From IMG/VR virus record IMGVR_UViG_2671181118_000005: a stretch of 10,154 nucleotides of DNA. One strand, 5' to 3'. Made by a program: the position numbers and the translations under genes. This document shows, one piece after another, positions 1 to 10,154 of this stretch (positions are counted from its first letter, which is position 1; each line of letters starts with the position of its first letter). The notes below the pieces were generated by a model, which saw only the letters and a program-made list of their open reading frames with translations, ran no database searches and had not been told where the DNA came from. This stretch comes from a virus. Lineage: Duplodnaviria > Heunggongvirae > Uroviricota > Caudoviricetes.

Positions 1-2454
1 GTAATCAAACGACGATGTGGTTTTCGTCCCCAAATCCGTACTGGATGCGCTGGCGCTGTGGGTGTGCGATTTAATGCCGTCCTGTTCCTGAGACAATACG
101 GCCCGACCACTGGCAGGTTTGCCCTTAATCGTCCAGCCACGCATATCAGGGATCACGCCTGACGGATAAGCGGCTGCAAGTTTCGGGTAAGCAGATTTGT
201 CAAAAGTCTGCCCCTGCATCAGGGCATAACCAGACGGAACGGTATCTGATGGCCACGGGATTGGTGCGCCGACTGGGTAGCTTTCTGGTGGAAGATTTTT
301 CGAGGTATAAACTTCTGCCCAGCCTTCCTCAAAACCATAACCGTCTCTTGAAGAACGGTAGAACAGACCACCATTTCTGTAATGCGCCTTCATCTGCAGG
401 GTCCGGCAACTTCCGACTCCGGTATAGAAGTTAACCAGAATATAGCTGTCGCCAGAGCGGGTGACATTGTAAGCGCCTGATTCGGCATTCCAGGGAACGC
501 CACCATCCGCATCGGCATATGTATCCGTTGCCCTTCTGGCAAAAGCAGCCACATGCGCGGCGGTTAAAGTAATATCTTTGGAACCATCAAATGGAACACC
601 GGATATTTTTCTTGCAGTCTGGAGTTTTGTAGCAGTTGCAGCATTACCAGTGGTGTTCTGATTACCCGTAGTGTTTACACCTGGAAGGTTAATATTTGCA
701 GAACCGTCGAAAACAACTCCACCGATAGATCTTGCCGTCTGCAATTTCGTGGCTGTACTTGCATTACCATTCAATGAACCAGTTAATCCACCTGTAACAG
801 ACAACGGACCTGAAACTGTTCCTCCGGTTGTTGGCAGTGCTCCAATATCTGATGGTGTAGGTTTCTGATGTGAGCTATACATCGTATAAACAACACCATA
901 GGTAACGCTGGAAGGCTTACTCGCTGAATATGTTGGCGAGGTATAAACAGAAACTGACGCATTTGCAGTACAATCCCAATGGATATTTACACTCGTCGCA
1001 TAATTGCCAATCTCAACGTAAATATCATATGTATCGCCGGATGTGTTGATCCAGGCGAAATTCGTTAATCCGACGGCTGTACGCTTCCACAAAGCCCCGG
1101 TAATTCCTTTGGGGTTTCCATTGCCTGCTCGTAGAACCAGTTCTGAAATGCCTGCCTGATGTGGGGAACCGACGTTGTAACCAGCGCCACCAATCAATGC
1201 GATGTAAACGATGGAACTCGCTTGTGGCATGGTAACCGTAGCCAGTTTGAACCACCCAGCCCCGCCAGAGAAAGACATCGTTACTGAATTTAAAGTACCA
1301 ATATCTTTCGGCGTTAATGTTATATCCGCAGTCAGTGCTTTTCCGTTAACTTTTCGGTTAGATGGCACCCTGCTATTCGCATTGTCATTGGCTGCTTTAA
1401 CTGCTTTTGGCGTTGCGGCCAGCGATTCACTGGTGCTATCAACAGCACTGCTAAGTTTCACAACACCTTTAGTTGTAAGGCTTGCGTCTTCCATCGCAAC
1501 TGCACCGGCAATCTCTTCAGCACGATCAGCAGCAGCTTCCGCACGGGTCGCAGCGGATTCAGCAGTAGTTTTGCTCTGAGATGCCGCCGTCGCACTGCCA
1601 GCTGCCTCTGTCGCCTTCGTGGATGCTGTCGTGGCGCTGCCTTTCGCTGCTGATGCCTGTCTGCTCGCCTCATCTTTTGAAGCAGACGCAGATGATGCCG
1701 ATGACGCCGCCGAACTGGCGGACGATGCAGCTGCCATTTTTGAGGATTCTGCACTGGTTTCCGAGGCTTTCGCGTTCGTTTCGGATGTCTTCGCTGCGGA
1801 TGCAGACCTCGCTGCTGCGCTGGCCTGTTCAGCGGCTTCGCCAGCCTTCGTTGTGGCTGTTGAAGCAGACGATGCGGCGCTTTCTGCCGATTTTCCGGCG
1901 GCGGTGGCACTGGCTGAGGCCTGCCCGGCACTTGTTGACGCGGCACTGGCAGACGACGCAGCCGCTGTTTTTGAGCCTGCCGCAGCCGAGGCGCTCTGTC
2001 CCGCTGCCGTTTCAGAAGACCTGGCGTTTGTCTCAGACGTCTTTGCCGCCTTCGCGGAATTGCCTGCCGCCGTTGCCGAGGAAGCGGCACTACTGGCGCT
2101 TGATGATGCGTTCGTTTCTGATGATTTCGCTGCCTCTTTTGAGGCCGCCGCATCCCGGGCTGAGGTGGCTGCTTCTGACGCCTTCGTGGTCGCGGCGGAT
2201 GCAGAAGTGGCTGCTGATTGTTGTGACGCTGCCGCATTCGTTTCTGACGTTTTCGCCGCACCGGCACTGGTAGCTGCCGCGCTTTTTGAGGACTCTGCAG
2301 CAGCACTTTTTGCTGCTTCACGGGCCTTTGTCGATGCCGTTCCTGCGCTGGAAGACGCTGACTGAGCCGACGACGCGGCCTGTCCGGCTGACGTGCTGGC
2401 GGCACGTGCTGAGCCTGCAGCATCGGTTATTACCACTTCCCGGATCGCTATACG
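1..2454 (-). pseudogene. stf: Side tail fibre protein (lambda Stf family), 5'-truncated, C-terminus beyond window start. Frame is open from an in-frame TAG at 2455-2457 to position 1 and has no start codon of its own.
   Basis: Hand translation of the minus strand (codons with lowest coordinate = 1 mod 3). Positions 60-1 give [20 protein letters not shown], matching the recalled lambda Stf C-terminal region; 1740-1380 give Ala/Ser/Thr-rich sequence ([26 protein letters not shown]) matching mid-Stf; 2440-2380 give [16 protein letters not shown], matching Stf around residue 140. Spot checks at 541-600, 901-960 and 1201-1260 show no stops. Confidence 0.8.
1460..2430 (-). repeat. Low-complexity Ala/Ser/Thr-rich coding repeat inside the tail fibre gene; it leaves several frames open on both strands.
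   Basis: Reiterated GCN/TCN/ACN codons in the true frame. The six-frame track shows long stop-free ORFs in other frames (Arg/Pro/Gln-rich on minus, Ala/Asp-rich on plus) typical of such repeats. Confidence 0.6.
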
Positions 2455-3292
2455 CTATTCCGTTAAAGATAATGGGCGGAATAATGATTTGACGGTCAAA
2501 GTTATGATCATCGCTGATGGTGACTGTAACCGTCCCGTTTGGTGTTTCCGTATTACCCCACGTACCAGCCTGTTTCGGGAATGATTTGGATACAGCTTTA
2601 ACGAAGTCACCTCTGACCTGAGTCGCCTCCAGCATGCCCTTAATCGTACAGTTTTCATTTACCGTGACATTGTTGAGCGTCCCGGCGTTCGCATTCACAC
2701 TGCCACTGATATCCGCATTTTTAGCGGTCAGCTTTCCGTCCGGTGTCAGGGAAAATGCCGGTGGATTTCCACCGCTGGTAATGGTGGGGGCCGTCAGGCG
2801 TTTCAGGAACACGTCGTTCATGAATATCTGATCGCCCTGACCAACAAACATCGGTTTTGTGTTGCCATTCGCAGGATTAACCATCGCAATCCTGTCCGCC
2901 GCCAGCAGCACCTGACTCTGCATGCCGTCAGGGGTGTTCTCAATATCCACGATGGCCTCTTTTTCCGGTACATGCTGCACGGCGGTGATGGCATACGTGC
3001 CGTCGTCGTTCTCACGGATACTCACGCAGCGGAACAGGCGCTGGCGCAACGTCGGCAGCTTCAGCCCCCATACGCTGTATTCAGCAACGCCGTCAGGAAC
3101 ACGGCTCACTTTCACCTTCACGCCGTCGGTGACGGACTGAACCTCCACGCTGACCGGACTCCCCTGCCCGTCAACCAGGCTTATCAGCGTGGTGCCGGAA
3201 GATGGCAGCGTGATTTCACGGTCGAGCGTCAGCGTCCGGGTCTGGCTGTTTACCGCCAGCACGCGCCCGCCGGTGCGGATACCCAAGCTGGA
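2318..3292 (-). pseudogene. J: Host specificity / central tail fibre protein J, internal fragment. N-terminal part is missing, the C-terminal receptor-binding end is missing, and the frame runs about 40 codons out of frame into stf before stopping at 2318.
   Basis: ORF translation [29 protein letters not shown]...[14 protein letters not shown]...[30 protein letters not shown] and ...[56 protein letters not shown]... matches the recalled C-terminal third of lambda J. The J frame opens right after a TAA about 3293-3301. Confidence 0.8.
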
Positions 3293-3504
3293 GTGGCGAA
3301 CGTTTTACCCTTGCTGATGAGGTATTCACTGATTTCGCTGTACCACATGTGGCTGAGTGCATTCTGGGAAAGACTGCGTCTCTCGCGCCACGGTTTAAGC
3401 ACCATGCGAAAGCATTTGCCGTCCTCCAGATAAGGCTGGATCTGCCGACCGATAGCGGTGAAGTTACCGCGATGCAATTTGATACCATCTTGTGGGAGGT
3501 TCAC
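3250..3504 (-). pseudogene. NinB/Orf-family recombination protein, N-terminal fragment of about 65 residues joined to J-derived sequence.
   Basis: GTG start at 3502-3504 preceded by GGAGGTG. The motif ERRSLSQN...W resembles the RSLDQNRKLW region of lambda NinB as recalled. The ORF then reads through J-derived DNA to a stop at 3250. Position after ren and the cargo island fits the lambda nin region. Confidence 0.5.
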
Positions 3505-3698
3505 GCTTCACCTCCGCAGAGATCAAACGCTGGATGCAAAATATCGCAGGTGCATTTCTGCATCTGTGAATGGAGAAGAGAGGTTGGATTGTATGTGCGC
3601 ATAAACGTCCCCGTTTAGCGCAGAAGTCACCGGAGTTGTTCAGGCCCCAATGGCATGATTATGGCTGGTTGATTATTGGAAATCAAATGTGCTGAAAA

Positions 3699-4877: not shown

Positions 4878-6404
4878 TCAAAAATAAACCTCACCATCAA
4901 CCATATATTTGAGAGTACTTATCGCCTGCTGGGCGGATATTGTTTTCATTAAAGGATAGTGTTTAAAAACAATGCCATTCATAAAATAGATATCACAGGT
5001 TTTATTATCTGTATTGATTATGATTTTTTCGAATGTTTTATAGGCAAGTGTACGACATAGCTCTCGCCCATTTTTACTGGTTAAGTCAATAGCATGAAAA
5101 TCACCAAGTGAACTCACCGCTTTACTCTTCAAAGTTTTTAATGATACAGAAGCCCTTCGTAATTCCTTATCTAATACTCTGATTTTTTCTGCTATAGCGG
5201 TAACTTCAGGCGCAACAGATAATGCAGCAATTAAATTATTAATTTTCATCTGGAGCTCAATAATTTTCAACTCTAAAGTTTCATTAGCATCTTTCTTGTT
5301 TTCAACTGGTTGGATTTTACTACAATTAAAAAGCAACTCATTAATGATATTATAATCAACCAAATCTCTCTTTATTGATGGCCTGTCACATCGATGCAGT
5401 CTTCTCATCGGACAAACATAATAGCCATGCAAACTTCCAGATACCGCATGAACAATCATGGTATTACCACAAGCCTCGCACTTCATAACTGTTCGAAGTA
5501 GATTTATCAACATAGGATTTTTGCTACTATTGCTAATACCAAAAGGTGCCAACCGAATTTCCTGCACAGCGTAAAACAAATCATCTGATATGACTCTGGG
5601 ATAATAGCCAGCGATTTCACTTATTCCTTTACCTCTTGCACGATATGAAGGTACGCATATACCTATCAGAGCTTTATTCGCTAATAATTTTTCAATTACA
5701 GAAGGTCCCCATGCACTTTCTTTTCCTGAGAAATTCTTTACAGCATGATCATTTAAATACTTGGCTATTGCATTCAATGAGCGCCTTTCCATCCTGAGTT
5801 TAAAAATTAGCTCAATAGTTTTCACCCTGTCGGGGTCTGGAACAAAAGCCGTTCTTTTGTCATCCAATGAGAGCCATCTCGGACAAGACGCCGTCATAAT
5901 CGTGCCTGACTCCAGTGCATCCTGCCGTTTTTTCTTCCATGATAATTTAACCCGACTTGACTTTATCTCGCTTTCTTCATTTGCCCTTTGTGCTATAAGT
6001 ATGGCTTTTATTAATGAATATGGCTCATTCAATGAGTCAATATTATAGACTGTATTATCGCAAAGAGTTATAACATCAATACCGTGATTCAAAATCAATT
6101 TCAGACGCTCAATCGCCTCACCGACTTTTTCTCTTGAAAGTCTGTCCAGACTTTCAACTAACAATGTAGTCCCTGGCAATATATAACCATGTTCTATAGC
6201 ATCTAAAAATTCCGAAAAAGCTCCTGATTGTGCATGCTTTCCATTGAATGCGCTTAACCCCAAATCTTCATACGTTACGGTATCAAGGTAATAATCACTA
6301 TTTACCTTTAGCCATTCAGTAATAAGCCTTCTCTGGCGGTTTAATGAATCACCAGACATCTGACTTGGTGATGAAAATCGCATATATGCTATGGCTTTTT
6401 TCAT
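4878..6404 (-). CDS. ybcK: Large serine recombinase, 508 aa (resolvase-type catalytic N-terminal domain, recombinase domain, Cys-rich zinc-ribbon, coiled-coil region). Resembles the DLP12 putative recombinase YbcK.
   Basis: N-terminal AYMRFSSPSQ...R motif typical of serine recombinases; C-x2-C ... C ... C cluster (CEACGNT...YYVCPMRRLHRCDRP). Length and position next to emrE match K-12 ybcK as recalled. AT-rich codon usage. Confidence 0.85.
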   Translation of the reverse strand: MKKAIAYMRFSSPSQMSGDSLNRQRRLITEWLKVNSDYYLDTVTYEDLGLSAFNGKHAQSGAFSEFLDAIEHGYILPGTTLLVESLDRLSREKVGEAIERLKLILNHGIDVITLCDNTVYNIDSLNEPYSLIKAILIAQRANEESEIKSSRVKLSWKKKRQDALESGTIMTASCPRWLSLDDKRTAFVPDPDRVKTIELIFKLRMERRSLNAIAKYLNDHAVKNFSGKESAWGPSVIEKLLANKALIGICVPSYRARGKGISEIAGYYPRVISDDLFYAVQEIRLAPFGISNSSKNPMLINLLRTVMKCEACGNTMIVHAVSGSLHGYYVCPMRRLHRCDRPSIKRDLVDYNIINELLFNCSKIQPVENKKDANETLELKIIELQMKINNLIAALSVAPEVTAIAEKIRVLDKELRRASVSLKTLKSKAVSSLGDFHAIDLTSKNGRELCRTLAYKTFEKIIINTDNKTCDIYFMNGIVFKHYPLMKTISAQQAISTLKYMVDGEVYF

Positions 6405-6659
6405 GGTGACACCTGCTAAAGTATGCTTTTATAAACCTTAGTGGTGAGATATGATTTTTGTTTAATTTTTATTTAAAAAGACAATTAAGGTCACATTATC
6501 TTGAATATACAACAATAATCGTATTGCAATTTTCTTACACCATAATCTTGAAAGCACAAAAGAATGAATAAAAACTAAAGACATTAACAAAAAGCATAAA
6601 ACGAGGCCCATATAAATATACGAGCCTCCATATTTTAGTCGTTTAAAAACAAATTATTT
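6405..6659 (-). promoter_or_regulatory. AT-rich intergenic region; probable promoter region for the recombinase gene.
   Basis: About 255 bp of very AT-rich non-coding DNA between the emrE stop and the recombinase start. Confidence 0.3.
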
Positions 6660-6992
6660 TTAATGTGGTGTGCTTCGTGACAATAAATTAATAACCAACA
6701 CACCGGCACAAATCAACATCATGCCTATAATGGCTGGCAGGTCCAACCGTTGGCCGAAAAATCCCCATGATAGTAAGCTAATCAGGACAATACCGACTCC
6801 TGACCAGATAGCATAAGCAATCCCTGTAGGAATATAAGCCAGCGTCTGAGCTAATAACCAGAATGATGCACAATAACAAATAATTGTACCAACAGATGGC
6901 CATAACCGTGTAAAACCTTCTGAAAACTTCATTAAGGTTGTACCAATGACCTCTGCAAGTATTGCACCACCAAGATAAATATAAGGGTTCAT
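6660..6992 (-). CDS. emrE: Small multidrug resistance (SMR) efflux transporter EmrE, 110 aa.
   Basis: From the internal Met (MNPYIYLGGAILAEVIGTTLMKFSEGFTRLWPSVG...LSRSTPH) the translation is near-identical to E. coli EmrE as recalled. AGGAAAG ribosome-binding site upstream of ATG at 6990-6992. The upstream 18 codons in the track ORF are probably not translated. Confidence 0.93.
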   Translation of the reverse strand: MNPYIYLGGAILAEVIGTTLMKFSEGFTRLWPSVGTIICYCASFWLLAQTLAYIPTGIAYAIWSGVGIVLISLLSWGFFGQRLDLPAIIGMMLICAGVLVINLLSRSTPH

Positions 6993-7059
6993 AGCATATT
7001 CTTTCCTGTTCAAACTGGAGAGAATTGTACTACAGTTTGAACTCAACTCACCTGTTTCA

Positions 7060-7362
7060 TCATTGTGTACCCATTGATGTTCTTTTATATACCCTCAATA
7101 CCCGTTTCATCGCGGCACTCTGGCGACACTCCTTAAAAATCAAATTCGTGCTCACCTTTCCTTCCCATTCTTCTCTGGTAGCGAACCGATAATACACCGT
7201 TCGCCAGACCTTACCATCAACGACTAGGATTCCTGCCCGCGCCATTTTAGCCGCAGCCTGATTTATGCTGGTTACCGTTGCGCCTGTTACCGCGGCAACG
7301 TCCTGCGCACAGAATTTCTTATGAGTCCCCAGGTAATGAATAATTGACTCTTTGCCCGTCAT
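7060..7362 (-). CDS. ren: Ren protein (lambdoid Ren exclusion-related protein), 100 aa.
   Basis: MTGKE.IIHYLGTH...TGATVTSINQAAAKMARAG...VWRTVYYRFATREE matches lambda Ren as recalled. 4-bp ATGA overlap with the P stop, as in lambda. Confidence 0.85.
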   Translation of the reverse strand: MTGKESIIHYLGTHKKFCAQDVAAVTGATVTSINQAAAKMARAGILVVDGKVWRTVYYRFATREEWEGKVSTNLIFKECRQSAAMKRVLRVYKRTSMGTQ

Positions 7363-8060
7363 ACCCTTGCTCCTTTCAGCCCAAACTTAGCTTTGATTTC
7401 TGCGATCTTCGCCAGAGCCTGTGCACGATTTAGAGGTCTACCGCCCATGACAGGAAGTTGTTTTACTGGTTCAGGTATAGCCTCACCACGGTTAATTCGT
7501 GCGGTCATACAGGACAGTTCATCGGCAGCCTTGCGCCGTAATTCCGCGTCAGTCAACGCATTGGCCCGCATGTTCTGATACAGGTTGGTAACCAGCCAGT
7601 AGTGCGCGTTTGATTTCCACGGATAAGACTCTGCATCCGGATACAGCCCGCGCTTCCGGCAATACTCGTAAACCATATCAACCAGCTCGCTGGCGTTTGG
7701 CAGCCCGGCGGTAACGGATGCTTCTTCCCGGCACCAGGCGACAAACTGCCCGGGTGATGGCAGGAATGGTCGATTCTGCCGACGGGCTACGCGCATTCCA
7801 GCGTTAACCTGTTCCATTGTGGTGATCCCGTTTTCCCGAAAAGCCAGCACCCACTGGCGGCGGATTTCGTTCAGTTCATTCTGGTCACGGTTAGCCAGGC
7901 TCGCCGGGAAAGTTGCCAGTAACTGGCTGAACACACCGTTGATGATCTGCGCTACCTGCTGTACCTGTGGCTTTTCGTCGTACTGTTCCGGCATGTTGTT
8001 GGCGATCCGACGCATCTGCTCACGGTCAAAGTTAACCATCTGTGCGGCGATGTTTTTCAT
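7359..8060 (-). CDS. P: Replication protein P (DnaB helicase loader), 233 aa, apparently full length.
   Basis: MKNIAAQMVNFDREQMRRIANNMPEQYDEKPQVQQVAQIINGVF... matches lambda P almost residue for residue as recalled. Start overlaps the O stop (ATGA), as in lambda. Confidence 0.92.
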   Translation of the reverse strand: MKNIAAQMVNFDREQMRRIANNMPEQYDEKPQVQQVAQIINGVFSQLLATFPASLANRDQNELNEIRRQWVLAFRENGITTMEQVNAGMRVARRQNRPFLPSPGQFVAWCREEASVTAGLPNASELVDMVYEYCRKRGLYPDAESYPWKSNAHYWLVTNLYQNMRANALTDAELRRKAADELSCMTARINRGEAIPEPVKQLPVMGGRPLNRAQALAKIAEIKAKFGLKGARV

Positions 8061-8296
8061 AGATCCACCCCGTAAATCCAGTCAGTGTTTGTCAGGTCGA
8101 GTTTTGGTTTGCCGACTGTCACGCCAGCCTGTTGCTTGTTCCGGTTGATTTCGAGCTGGGTCCACTTGTCGCGGAGTTTGGCCGGACTCAGCACGTTACC
8201 GGACCAGAAGTTGTCCTGGCAGGCCCAGCGGAACAGTACACACATGTCGCGGTGGTTACGTCCATCACGTTCACGCATCAGACGGATATCGTTACC
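8057..8296 (-). pseudogene. O: Replication initiator O, C-terminal fragment of about 78 residues; N-terminal domain and the origin iterons are deleted.
   Basis: Minus-strand translation [76 protein letters not shown] matches the lambda O C-terminus. Upstream of about 8296 the same strand is antisense exo sequence. Confidence 0.85.
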
Positions 8297-8947
8297 GGGA
8301 TCGACGTGAGAGCTGTCGAACAGGGGGATGATGCGTGGCACAAATTACGGCTCGGCGTCATCACCGCTTCAGAAGTTCACAACGTGATAGCAAAGCCCCG
8401 CTCAGGAAAGAAGTGGCCTGACATGAAAATGTCCTACTTCCACACCCTGCTTGCCGAGGTTTGCACCGGTGTGGCTCCGGAAGTTAACGCTAAAGCACTG
8501 GCCTGGGGAAAACAGTACGAGAACGACGCCAGAACCCTGTTTGAGTTCACTTCCGGCGTAAATGTTATTGAATCCCCGATCATCTATCGCGACGAAAGTA
8601 TGCGCACCGCCTGCTCTCCCGATGGTTTATGCAGTGACGGCAATGGCCTTGAACTGAAATGCCCGTTTACCTCCCGGGATTTCATGAAGTTCCGGCTCGG
8701 TGGTTTCGAGGCCATAAAGTCGGCTTACATGGCCCAGGTGCAGTACAGCATGTGGGTGACGCGAAAAGATGCCTGGTACTTTGCCAACTATGACCCGCGT
8801 ATGAAGCGTGAAGGCCTGCATTATGTCGTGGTTGAGCGGGATGAAAAGTACATGGCGAATTTTGACGAGATGGTGCCGGAGTTCATCGAAAAAATGGACG
8901 AGGCACTGGCTGAAATTGGTTTTGTATTTGGGGAGCAATGGCGATGA
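8293..8947 (+). pseudogene. exo: Lambda-type exonuclease (Red-alpha / Exo), missing roughly its first 10 codons; fused upstream to antisense O/P DNA, with a fortuitous in-frame ATG at 8132.
   Basis: Translation from [31 protein letters not shown]... to ...[14 protein letters not shown] matches lambda Exo as recalled. bet and gam are not upstream where expected. Confidence 0.9.
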
Positions 8948-9009
8948 CGCATCCTCACGATAATATCCGGGTAGGCGCGATCACTTTCGTCTACTCCATT
9001 ACAAAGCGA

Positions 9010-9038
9010 GGCTGGGTATTTCCCGGCCTTTCTGTTAT
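9010..9038 (+). terminator. Candidate intrinsic terminator downstream of exo (lambda tL3-like position).
   Basis: GGCTGGG-TATTT-CCCGGCC hairpin (7-bp stem with one G-U pair) followed by TTTCTGTTAT. Confidence 0.3.
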
Positions 9039-9098
9039 CAGAAATCCACTGAAAGCACAGCGGCTGGCTGAGAAGATAAATAACAAACAGGAGGATAT

Positions 9099-9718
9099 AT
9101 GAGTCAGGTTGGTAATCATTCATTCGAATTTCCGGCATCGCAAGGTGTACAGGGTGGTACTGTTACACTCTTCCTTACCATACCAGGAAGATCGCTGGCT
9201 CGTTTCCTCGCTTCAGATAATTACGGCCATACACTGGAACGCTCTCAGCGAGAAATTAATCCAAATCGAGTACGAAAATTTTTAAATTATCTCACTAACG
9301 CAGACTCAAGAAATGAGCCTTTTATCATTCCCCCTCTCGTAGGTAACTGTGATTCGAATATAGAATTTGTACCGTTTGGCAACACAAATGTTGGTATAGC
9401 CAGAATTCCCCTCGACGCCGAAATAAAACTTTTTGATGGTCAACATCGTGCAGCTGGCATTGAGATATTTTGCCGAAGTTCCCCATCAACGCTCATGGTT
9501 CCCATGATGCTTACAATGAATCTGCCGCTAAAAACCCGGCAGCAGTTCTTTTCGGACATAAATAACAACGTTTCTAAGCCATCAGCGACCATCAATATGG
9601 CGTATAACGGCCGGGATGATATTGCTCAGGGAATGATATCCTTCCTGACCCAACATACTGTATTTGCCGATATAACCGATTTTGAACACAACGTAGTGCC
9701 ATTAAAAAGTAATATGTG
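9099..9718 (+). pseudogene. DGQHR-motif protein (DndB-like, ParB/Srx-fold family), 3'-truncated after about 206 codons by the IS insertion.
   Basis: ATG at 9099 with AGGAGG ribosome-binding site. Translation contains the family-defining FDGQHR motif (…AEIKLFDGQHRAAGIEIF…). The last 16 codons of the track ORF ([16 protein letters not shown]) are encoded by the IS left end, not by the gene. Confidence 0.7.
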
Positions 9719-9772
9719 TGAACCGCCCCGGGAATCCTGGAGACTAAACTTCCTGAGAAAGAGGTAAACAGG

Positions 9773-10099
9773 ATGACTAAAAATACTCGTTTTTCCCCCG
9801 AAGTCCGTCAACGGGCAGTCCGTATGGTTCTGGAAAGTCAGGATGAATATGACTCACAGTGGGCGGCAATTTGTTCCATTGCCCCAAAGATTGGCTGTAC
9901 GCCGGAGACTCTGCGTGTCTGGGTTCGCCAGCATGAGCGGGATACCGGGGGCGGTGATGGTGGGCTCACCAGCGCTGAACGTCAGCGTCTGAAAGAGCTG
10001 GAACGTGAAAATCGTGAACTGCGCCGCAGTAACGATATCCTTCGCCAGGCTTCCGCTTATTTTGCGAAGGCGGAGTTCGACCGCCTCTGGAAAAAATGA
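9773..10099 (+). CDS. IS629-group transposase OrfA (helix-turn-helix plus leucine-zipper subunit), 108 aa.
   Basis: [60 protein letters not shown]... matches IS629 OrfA as recalled. Confidence 0.9.
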
Positions 10100-10154
10100 T
10101 GCCACTGCTGGATAAGCTGCGTGAGCAGTACGGGGTCGGACCGGTATGCAGCGA
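10096..10154 (+). CDS. IS629-group transposase OrfB (catalytic subunit), N-terminal 19 codons only; made as an OrfAB fusion by -1 frameshifting at the A-rich slippery run.
   Basis: The -1 frame reads [19 protein letters not shown], matching the recalled OrfB N-terminus; slippery sequence GGAAAAAATGATG at 10089-10101 overlaps the orfA stop. Confidence 0.7.

Follow-up and report, generated by a model that had tools for sequence, protein, structure and literature searches.

The window considered here is a stretch of 10,154 nucleotides of viral DNA (IMG/VR record IMGVR_UViG_2671181118_000005), in which the minus strand ceases to encode a lambda-like O protein at the point where the plus strand begins to encode a lambda-like Exo. 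The locus raises the question of what this junction is, how it arose and what it did to the element that carries it. The original prediction was that one deletion had fused the end of O to a 5'-truncated exo, had taken immunity, antitermination and replication initiation with it, and had thereby left the element immobile.

The O-exo joint

Two BLASTN matches to lambda account for the DNA on either side of the junction. Window 7087-8294 corresponds to lambda 40555-39348 with 93.9% identity and is collinear with ren-P-O, of which O contributes residues 222-299. Window 8293-9101 corresponds to lambda 32002-31194 with 97.0% identity and is collinear with exo (residues 10-226) and orf60a. In a base-by-base three-line alignment, the O-side identity stops at 8294 and the exo-side identity begins at 8293. 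The two homologies overlap by 2 bp, TA, with no filler sequence, and the same alignment revealed no longer microhomology or gapped repeat beyond the TA. The parental sites are cgtTAgcc on the O side and gcgTAccggg on the exo side; the O-side site reads TAGC, not TACC. The result is the same when phage Turner replaces lambda in the alignment. The joint is described as follows.

8293-8294, no strand: deletion joint with a shared 2-bp TA (three-line alignment, repeated against Turner)

The minus-strand reading from 8293 is lambda O 222-299 (NDIRLMRER..., 76 of 78 residues identical, BLASTP E = 1e-56), and the plus-strand reading from 8294 is lambda Exo 10-226 (212/217 identical, 98%, E = 4e-168). 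Both proteins are cut inside conserved sequence, exactly at the joint. Pfam independently assigns YqaJ to the exo part and Phage_lambda_P to the neighbouring gene. BLASTN, BLASTP and the base-level alignment bear out the position originally predicted, 8292-8296, and the peptide quoted from each side; the alignment to lambda for which the prediction had called fixes the breakpoints to the base, with the 2-bp TA as the microhomology. Two findings had been named that would speak against a deletion, unique DNA between the two homologies and a gene order native to another phage family. No such DNA intervenes, and the two halves are contiguous in none of 283 phage records. The flanks are non-adjacent in intact phages and agree with them in order and orientation. 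The O-exo junction is thus confirmed as a genuine deletion scar in a dead lambda-like E. coli prophage.

DNA missing at the joint

The window lacks 7,347 bp of the lambda sequence (32003-39349 or 32001-39347, according to the side to which the TA is assigned). This interval comprises, on the exo side, the first 9 codons of exo, bet, gam, kil, cIII, ea10, ral, sieB and N; in the middle, pL/oL, rexAB, cI, pR/oR, cro and cII; and, on the O side, the first 221 codons of O including all four ori iterons (lambda 39034-39118). It was correctly predicted that exo had been left without bet and P without a functional O: bet, the DNA-binding half of O and the iterons all lie in the lost interval.

The closest intact phage found is Escherichia phage Turner (PP925837), which also carries the ren-emrE-ybcK module. 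Its identity to the window is 96.2% along the O-P-ren-emrE-ybcK arm and 97.4% along the exo arm, and both breakpoints are the same as with lambda. Both flanks of the window joint are collinear with Turner and lambda, whereas these phages contain 4.4 kb and 7.3 kb, respectively, that are absent from the window, and all of the late genes. The DNA missing relative to Turner amounts to 4,400 bp, provided that the Turner record is a complete circular permutation, and includes the O N-terminus, cII-like, cro-like and cI-like genes, two small open reading frames, gam and bet. Because lambda is not the closest relative and the Turner interval is this short, the list of lost genes given in the prediction holds as the content of lambda and is an analogy, not a fact, with regard to the ancestor. 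That exo is truncated at its 5' end is right as well, on a small scale, only its first 9 codons being gone.

Genes around the joint

The window is part of a lambdoid prophage remnant whose map runs here in the reverse of the customary lambda orientation. The genes on both sides of the joint are listed below.

4878-6404, minus strand: ybcK (open reading frame list)
6660-7046, minus strand: emrE (open reading frame list; the native ATG is probably further in)
7060-7362, minus strand: intact ren homologue, 100 aa (open reading frame list; collinear with lambda ren)
7359-8060, minus strand: intact homologue of replication protein P, 233 aa (Pfam Phage_lambda_P, E = 8e-62; collinear with lambda)
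8057-8294, minus strand: O remnant, lambda O 222-299 and stop (BLASTP); the N-terminal 221 residues and the iterons are absent
8294-8947, plus strand: exo remnant, lambda Exo 10-226 and stop (BLASTP; Pfam YqaJ, E = 4e-29)
8944-9102, plus strand: orf60a-like DUF1317 gene (lambda match to 9101; PGAP annotation in NCTC9100)
9099-9718, plus strand: 5' part of a DGQHR/DndB-family gene, cut by an IS (Pfam DndB, E = 4e-36)
9719-10154, plus strand: left end of an IS3-family element, beginning TGAACCGCCCCGGGAATCCTGGAGACTAAAC (boundary sequence; orfA-like open reading frame at 9773-10099)

In the identical DNA of NCTC9100, PGAP labels ren 'phage exclusion protein Ren' and flags the O remnant as 'incomplete; missing N-terminus'. 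The O remnant does not qualify as an initiator, its origin-binding N-terminal half and the iterons being gone. In the exo remnant, the counterparts of the catalytic residues D119, E129 and K131 of lambda Exo are present, including SPDG...LELK. The remnant has no start codon of its own, no coupling to bet and no pL, and a consensus promoter scan detected no promoter-like sigma-70 site upstream of it on the plus strand. The promoters of both operons are lost, and P and ren lack a promoter, an origin and an O partner. Judged by the consensus promoter scan, P, ren and the exo remnant are presumably silent, inert DNA. The O-exo joint carries no function of its own.

The truncated exo is called by PGAP as an intact 'lambda exonuclease family protein' of 660 nt (219 aa) at window 8288-8947 (15989-16648 in locus L002). 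This CDS begins at 8288 with an ATC codon that belongs to the O remnant, and its listing as intact by RefSeq/PGAP is probably an annotation artefact. For annotation, O is to be treated here as a pseudogene and the 'intact' exo CDS as lacking a real start. Mechanical open reading frames span the joint on both strands (8132-8947, plus; 8057-8341, minus), the exo frame remaining open across 54 codons of antisense O and the O frame across 16 of antisense exo.

The right end of the window is occupied by the IS3-family element (9719-10154, end TGAACCGCCCCGGGAATCC...), which interrupts the DGQHR/DndB-family gene; its reading frame at 9773-10099 is orfA-like and of the IS3 type. NCTC9100 has the DGQHR/DndB gene uninterrupted (1065 bp), and the identity of the window to NCTC9100 ends at 9718. 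This insertion is absent from all complete E. coli genomes in the collection and present in the IMG/VR contig L010. The 31-mer that opens the window IS also opens many IS copies in IMG/VR.

Distribution, locus and order of events

Of 5,426 complete E. coli genomes, 23 contain the full length of a 141-bp probe spanning the joint, 22 of them at 100% identity; the joint also occurs in 4 IMG/VR contigs and 1 metagenome contig. The joint is not an assembly artefact, because the same 141 bp occur in all these independent genomes and contigs. A scan of species-representative genomes found neither this joint nor the other exo-site joints described below. L010, one of the IMG/VR contigs, is 99.99% identical to the window and likewise runs into the IS, and therefore probably represents the same or a sister strain.

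The element that hosts the joint is a remnant of about 17 kb at icd. In all three copies inspected (NCTC9100, Z1323CEC0014 and O157:H16 98-3133), it lies between icd and an icd' fragment with the same neighbours. The order in NCTC9100 is int, xis, DUF4222, TraR, DGQHR, orf60a and exo', then, across the joint, O', P, ren, emrE, a ylcJ-like open reading frame and ybcK, and, further on, ybcN', which is fused in turn to J' and followed by tail fibre, tfa and a McrBC-like gene. The copy in Z1323CEC0014 (L006) carries a frameshifted DGQHR gene. The O157:H16 copy (L007) lacks a further block that begins inside P and runs to where the tail-fibre gene ends; the O-exo joint next to it is unchanged.

The fusion of ybcN' to J' is a second deletion joint of the window.

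3280-3283, no strand: second deletion joint, J fragment fused to the N-terminal part of a ybcN/ninB-like gene, shared TACC

Window 2944-3283 corresponds to Turner 18746-19085 and window 3280-3690 to Turner 41823-42233; Pfam assigns Phage_Tail_Tip and Ig_GpJ_C to window 2321-3286. About 22.7 kb are gone relative to Turner, from within J to within ybcN, a region of Q, lysis, terminase, head and tail genes. The O-exo joint is the older of the two, since L009 has it together with an intact ybcN-ninE-rusA-Q stretch. The claim that the O-exo deletion explains why the element is immobile was overstated, given this second deletion and given that related copies of the element keep intact int and xis; for the latter reason, the icd remnant may still excise.

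In L006 the joint lies inside a 2-kb patch (window 7225-9190) with 55 differences from the window and nearly identical flanks. The differences are mostly synonymous (9:2 synonymous to non-synonymous in O', 14:4 in P), and the patch carries the alleles of intact phages as close as 12 bp to the joint. The O' haplotype of the window occurs in 100% identical copies beside P in joint-free genomes, and O genes with either haplotype appear, from the annotation in the hit table, to be full-length and are not flagged by PGAP as partial. These observations suggest a gene conversion that had working phage genes as donor and extended across the joint or as far as it. Dating the joint by neutral divergence was abandoned, because the L006 differences were evidently imported from working phage genes. 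The copies compared show an O-exo joint of single origin within the icd lineage; a single simple origin does not suffice for L006, whose 55-site patch with phage-like alleles requires later recombination.

A re-used exo site and the TA/TACC pattern

Taken alone, the O-exo scar is ordinary. It is a new allele of a well-known type of prophage scar, its O is already flagged as partial by RefSeq, and it records how one cryptic icd prophage lost immunity, antitermination and replication. Its interest lies in the recurrence of the exo-side breakpoint and in the TA/TACC signature seen at related joints.

Six different joints end at the exo-side site, gcgTACCggg; in these, exo codon 9/10 is joined to O, ybcN, bet, int, ea22 or an MT-A70 gene. 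In XJ34, a DLP12 element at argU, ybcN' is fused to exo' at the same exo nucleotide (tttTACCggg, against cgtTAccggg in the window), and the ybcN breakpoint is the TACC at which the second joint of the window starts. Four further joints emerged when IMG/VR was scanned for exo sites that follow a base other than the native one, and for the reciprocal half: to an MT-A70 methyltransferase gene (L016), bet (L014), int (L022) and ea22 (L021). L019 carries a ren'-bet' joint with the exo start intact, and L014 is the same element after one further deletion step, from a TACC in bet' to the exo site; the loss in this step is estimated at roughly 450-500 bp.

All fetched loci were also searched automatically, and blind to motif, for abutting homologies to Turner and lambda. 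Together with the targeted scans this gave 18 distinct joints in related remnants, at the following positions among others of the set.

Window: 8293 and 3280
L013: 6002
L003: 3073, 3377 and 18660
L004: 9663
L007: 11738
L014: 9539
L016: 808
L019: 4743 and 5921
L021 and L022: the ea22 and int joints, respectively

A shared TA is present at 14 of the 18, and in two more (L005 and XJ34b) TA abuts the joint or lies inside a longer repeat, giving 14-16/18. TACC is found at 11 of 24 parental sites. Five sites were used at least twice: the exo site in six joints, and ybcN, P at window 7961, bet TAACG and orf60a GGGTAAG in two each. The P site, TACC at window 7961-7964, served two unrelated deletions running in opposite directions, the P'-bet' joint of L004 and the tail fibre'-P' joint of L007. 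In Turner, 4.6% of dinucleotides are TA, and TACC, with 177 copies, is of average frequency for a tetranucleotide. The excess of TA/TACC is far beyond chance, even when the six exo-site joints are collapsed. Joints of other kinds are detectable by the same method, as illustrated by a 467-bp deletion in L004 that shares a 9-bp repeat. By our own calculation, a 2-bp overlap is expected in about 16% of random joints, and for that reason the O-exo joint by itself is no proof of a sequence preference.

We tentatively propose, with a confidence just short of even, that deletions of lambda-like prophages in E. coli proceed by a sequence-preferring break-and-join at TA, mostly TACC, with strong hot spots of which exo codon 9/10 is the hottest, the agent being perhaps a prophage- or host-encoded recombinase or nuclease. 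Candidates could be the serine recombinase YbcK, a Pin-type invertase, a topoisomerase or a TA-targeting transposase. If prophage inactivation runs through a few TA/TACC sites, domestication has a mechanistic, genetically testable component, and the products of lambdoid prophage decay are partly predictable. The literature yielded nothing relevant on a TACC or TA deletion hot spot, or on the function of ybcK.

Candidate agents

A shared 2-bp crossover, loose flanks and re-used pseudo-sites form the pattern that a serine recombinase would give. YbcK, an uncharacterised serine recombinase of 508 aa, is intact in the window. No symmetric or extended site consensus was seen among the 18 joints. 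The elements with these joints use at least three integrases (icd, argU/att-lambda and thrW), which disfavours the action of an integrase at secondary att sites.

Insertion sequences were considered as the source of the motif in a target-preference test that covered IS3, IS629 and IS30. Two hints pointed to IS3, namely the TTACCCA within its inverted repeat and the K-12 IS3 in renD, which lies 3 nt from a TACC; 74 IS3 insertion sites had no TACC preference. IS629 was rejected on 123 left flanks with a weak -AC bias at most and on 11 target duplications, all different. IS30 was rejected as well: the target of K-12 IS30A happens to be GGCTACCGCG, but the actual palindromic hot spot is AAAAAGGC..GCCTTTTT, with no preference for TACC. 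The ybcK-emrE cassette is not a TACC-bounded unit, its borders being ordinary mosaic borders.

Several other systems were considered and set aside. RusA (which cuts 5' of CC), gyrase and the TTAC targeting of IS200/IS605 do not appear to fit all joints, and neither, presumably, do integron GTT sites, BREX GGTAAG or Din-invertase sites. An IS608-type cut after TTAC would predict the wrong product for the O-exo and K-12 joints.

Two observations on the IS elements of these prophages were made in passing. Among complete IS629-like copies in IMG/VR prophage contigs (loci L118-L235), 16 of 30 lack a matching duplication of the target, a hint that IS-linked rearrangement is frequent in prophages. 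At L009 46-76, about 10 nt separate an IS with the 31-nt end of the window IS from the GGGTAAG site of orf60a, at which deletions in K-12 and XJ34 end.

Comparison with other prophage deletions

The DLP12 prophage of K-12 bears the most similar scar. There exoD (264 bp) and peaD (312 bp) meet at a point equivalent to window 7670 and 8668, and the gap between, window 7671-8667 (997 bp), contains the joint of the window. As in the window, a segment with the immunity region and the replication origin is lost, a fragment of exo stands back-to-back with a fragment of a replication gene, the scar lies beside ren-emrE-ylcJ-ybcK, and the two parental sites share a TA, that of exo reading TACC. In contrast to the window, K-12 retains only 312 bp of P and 264 bp of exo, with no O, and its element is at argU, with a different integrase module and haplotype, whereas that of the window is at icd.

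Decaying and domesticated prophages in general resemble the remnants examined here in having lost lytic, replication and immunity functions while keeping cargo (emrE, McrBC-like, DGQHR) and int/xis; the deletions in the present remnants differ in that they re-use few sites and share TA/TACC instead of being scattered. The nin5 deletion of lambda is likewise internal to a lambdoid genome and free of IS. Its endpoints, lambda 40502 and 43307, both fall inside a 10-bp direct repeat, CACGAACCTG, whereas the O-exo joint shares TA alone.

Origin of the joint

The joint is very probably the scar of a deletion inside a lambdoid prophage, now a remnant at icd, with joining at a shared TA. Such a deletion would have connected O, just behind codon 221, with exo at a point nine codons from its start; the two sites have the TA in common and no further homology. 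This event, or a few successive ones that finished at this exo site, would have removed the early promoters, the repressor/cro switch and cII, together with the DNA-binding half of O with the origin, and gam/bet. The local TA/TACC may have favoured breakage or joining, in which case the deletion was no mere chance event. The scar may stem from a single deletion, as originally predicted, or from several nested ones, which would leave the same end product; a stepwise series is seen in the sister lineage, from L019 to L014. It is conceivable, if on the unlikely side, that the O-exo joint is the last of successive deletions all ending at the exo site. The step in the sister lineage and the use of that site in six joints favour such a series, but the icd lineage offers no intermediate and all 23 genomes carry the final joint. 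A descent from the same ancestral deletion as exoD/peaD, with later losses on both sides in K-12, is much less probable. Nesting is formally possible, since the K-12 gap contains the window joint, and both elements have ren-emrE-ylcJ-ybcK. The breakpoints, however, differ on both sides (7670 and 8668 in K-12, 8294 and 8293 in the window), as do the loci and the integrases. The exoD of K-12 is 100% identical to Turner and to the argU remnant L004 and only 97.7% identical to the window, and L004 shows that the argU lineage has its own joint, P'-bet', which is not nested with that of the window because L004 keeps bet' and the start of exo and has no O'. The comparison with exoD/peaD that had been proposed thus indicates, by breakpoints, locus and exo haplotype, that the deletion is not the same one. 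Independent deletions in different lineages are the simplest reading, although a shared first step is conceivable, as the K-12 gap swallows the site.

An IS may in principle have entered the exo site, caused an adjacent deletion and then left with the help of the IS-excision enhancer (IEE). Insertion, deletion and almost traceless excision are documented for IS3/IS629 with IEE (PMC8860574, PMC9943667), IS3-family copies are present in these remnants (at window 9719, in renD of K-12 and next to exo in L009), and over half of the complete IS629 copies in prophage contigs have no target duplication. Native O abuts native exo, however, with no IS, IS end or IS fragment at the joint, and the IS3, IS629 and IS30 sites surveyed have no preference for TACC or for these positions, which makes this route distinctly unlikely. 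Illegitimate recombination between two co-resident prophages, rather than deletion within one, would accord with the mosaic nature of lambdoid remnants and with the different closest relatives of the element's segments. It is improbable nonetheless, since both flanks match one intact phage, Turner, in the order and orientation of a single map. Hardly any weight can be given to the idea that the arrangement is the native gene order of another phage family or that the fused reading frames are functional new genes. The open reading frames that cross the joint and the intact exo CDS of PGAP speak for it. Against it are the phage records, none with the halves contiguous, the interruption of both O and Exo inside conserved sequence, and an exo CDS that starts at ATC with no promoter-like site found.

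Other features of the window

The emrE-ylcJ-ybcK cassette known from DLP12 of K-12 at argU is found here in the icd remnant, at window 4878-7046. It also follows ren in Turner (L008 43488-45603), which was deposited as a complete genome, and its presence in that phage record identifies emrE as phage cargo. The serine recombinase YbcK is conserved intact in the cassette.

Window 1458-2423 contains long overlapping open reading frames in several frames with repetitive, low-complexity translations, rich in Ala and Asp on the plus strand and in Pro, Gln and Arg on the minus strand. PGAP places a hypothetical protein on the plus strand there, and the relative L006 has one continuous tail-fibre gene; the segment is probably a disrupted, repetitive part of a tail-fibre gene.
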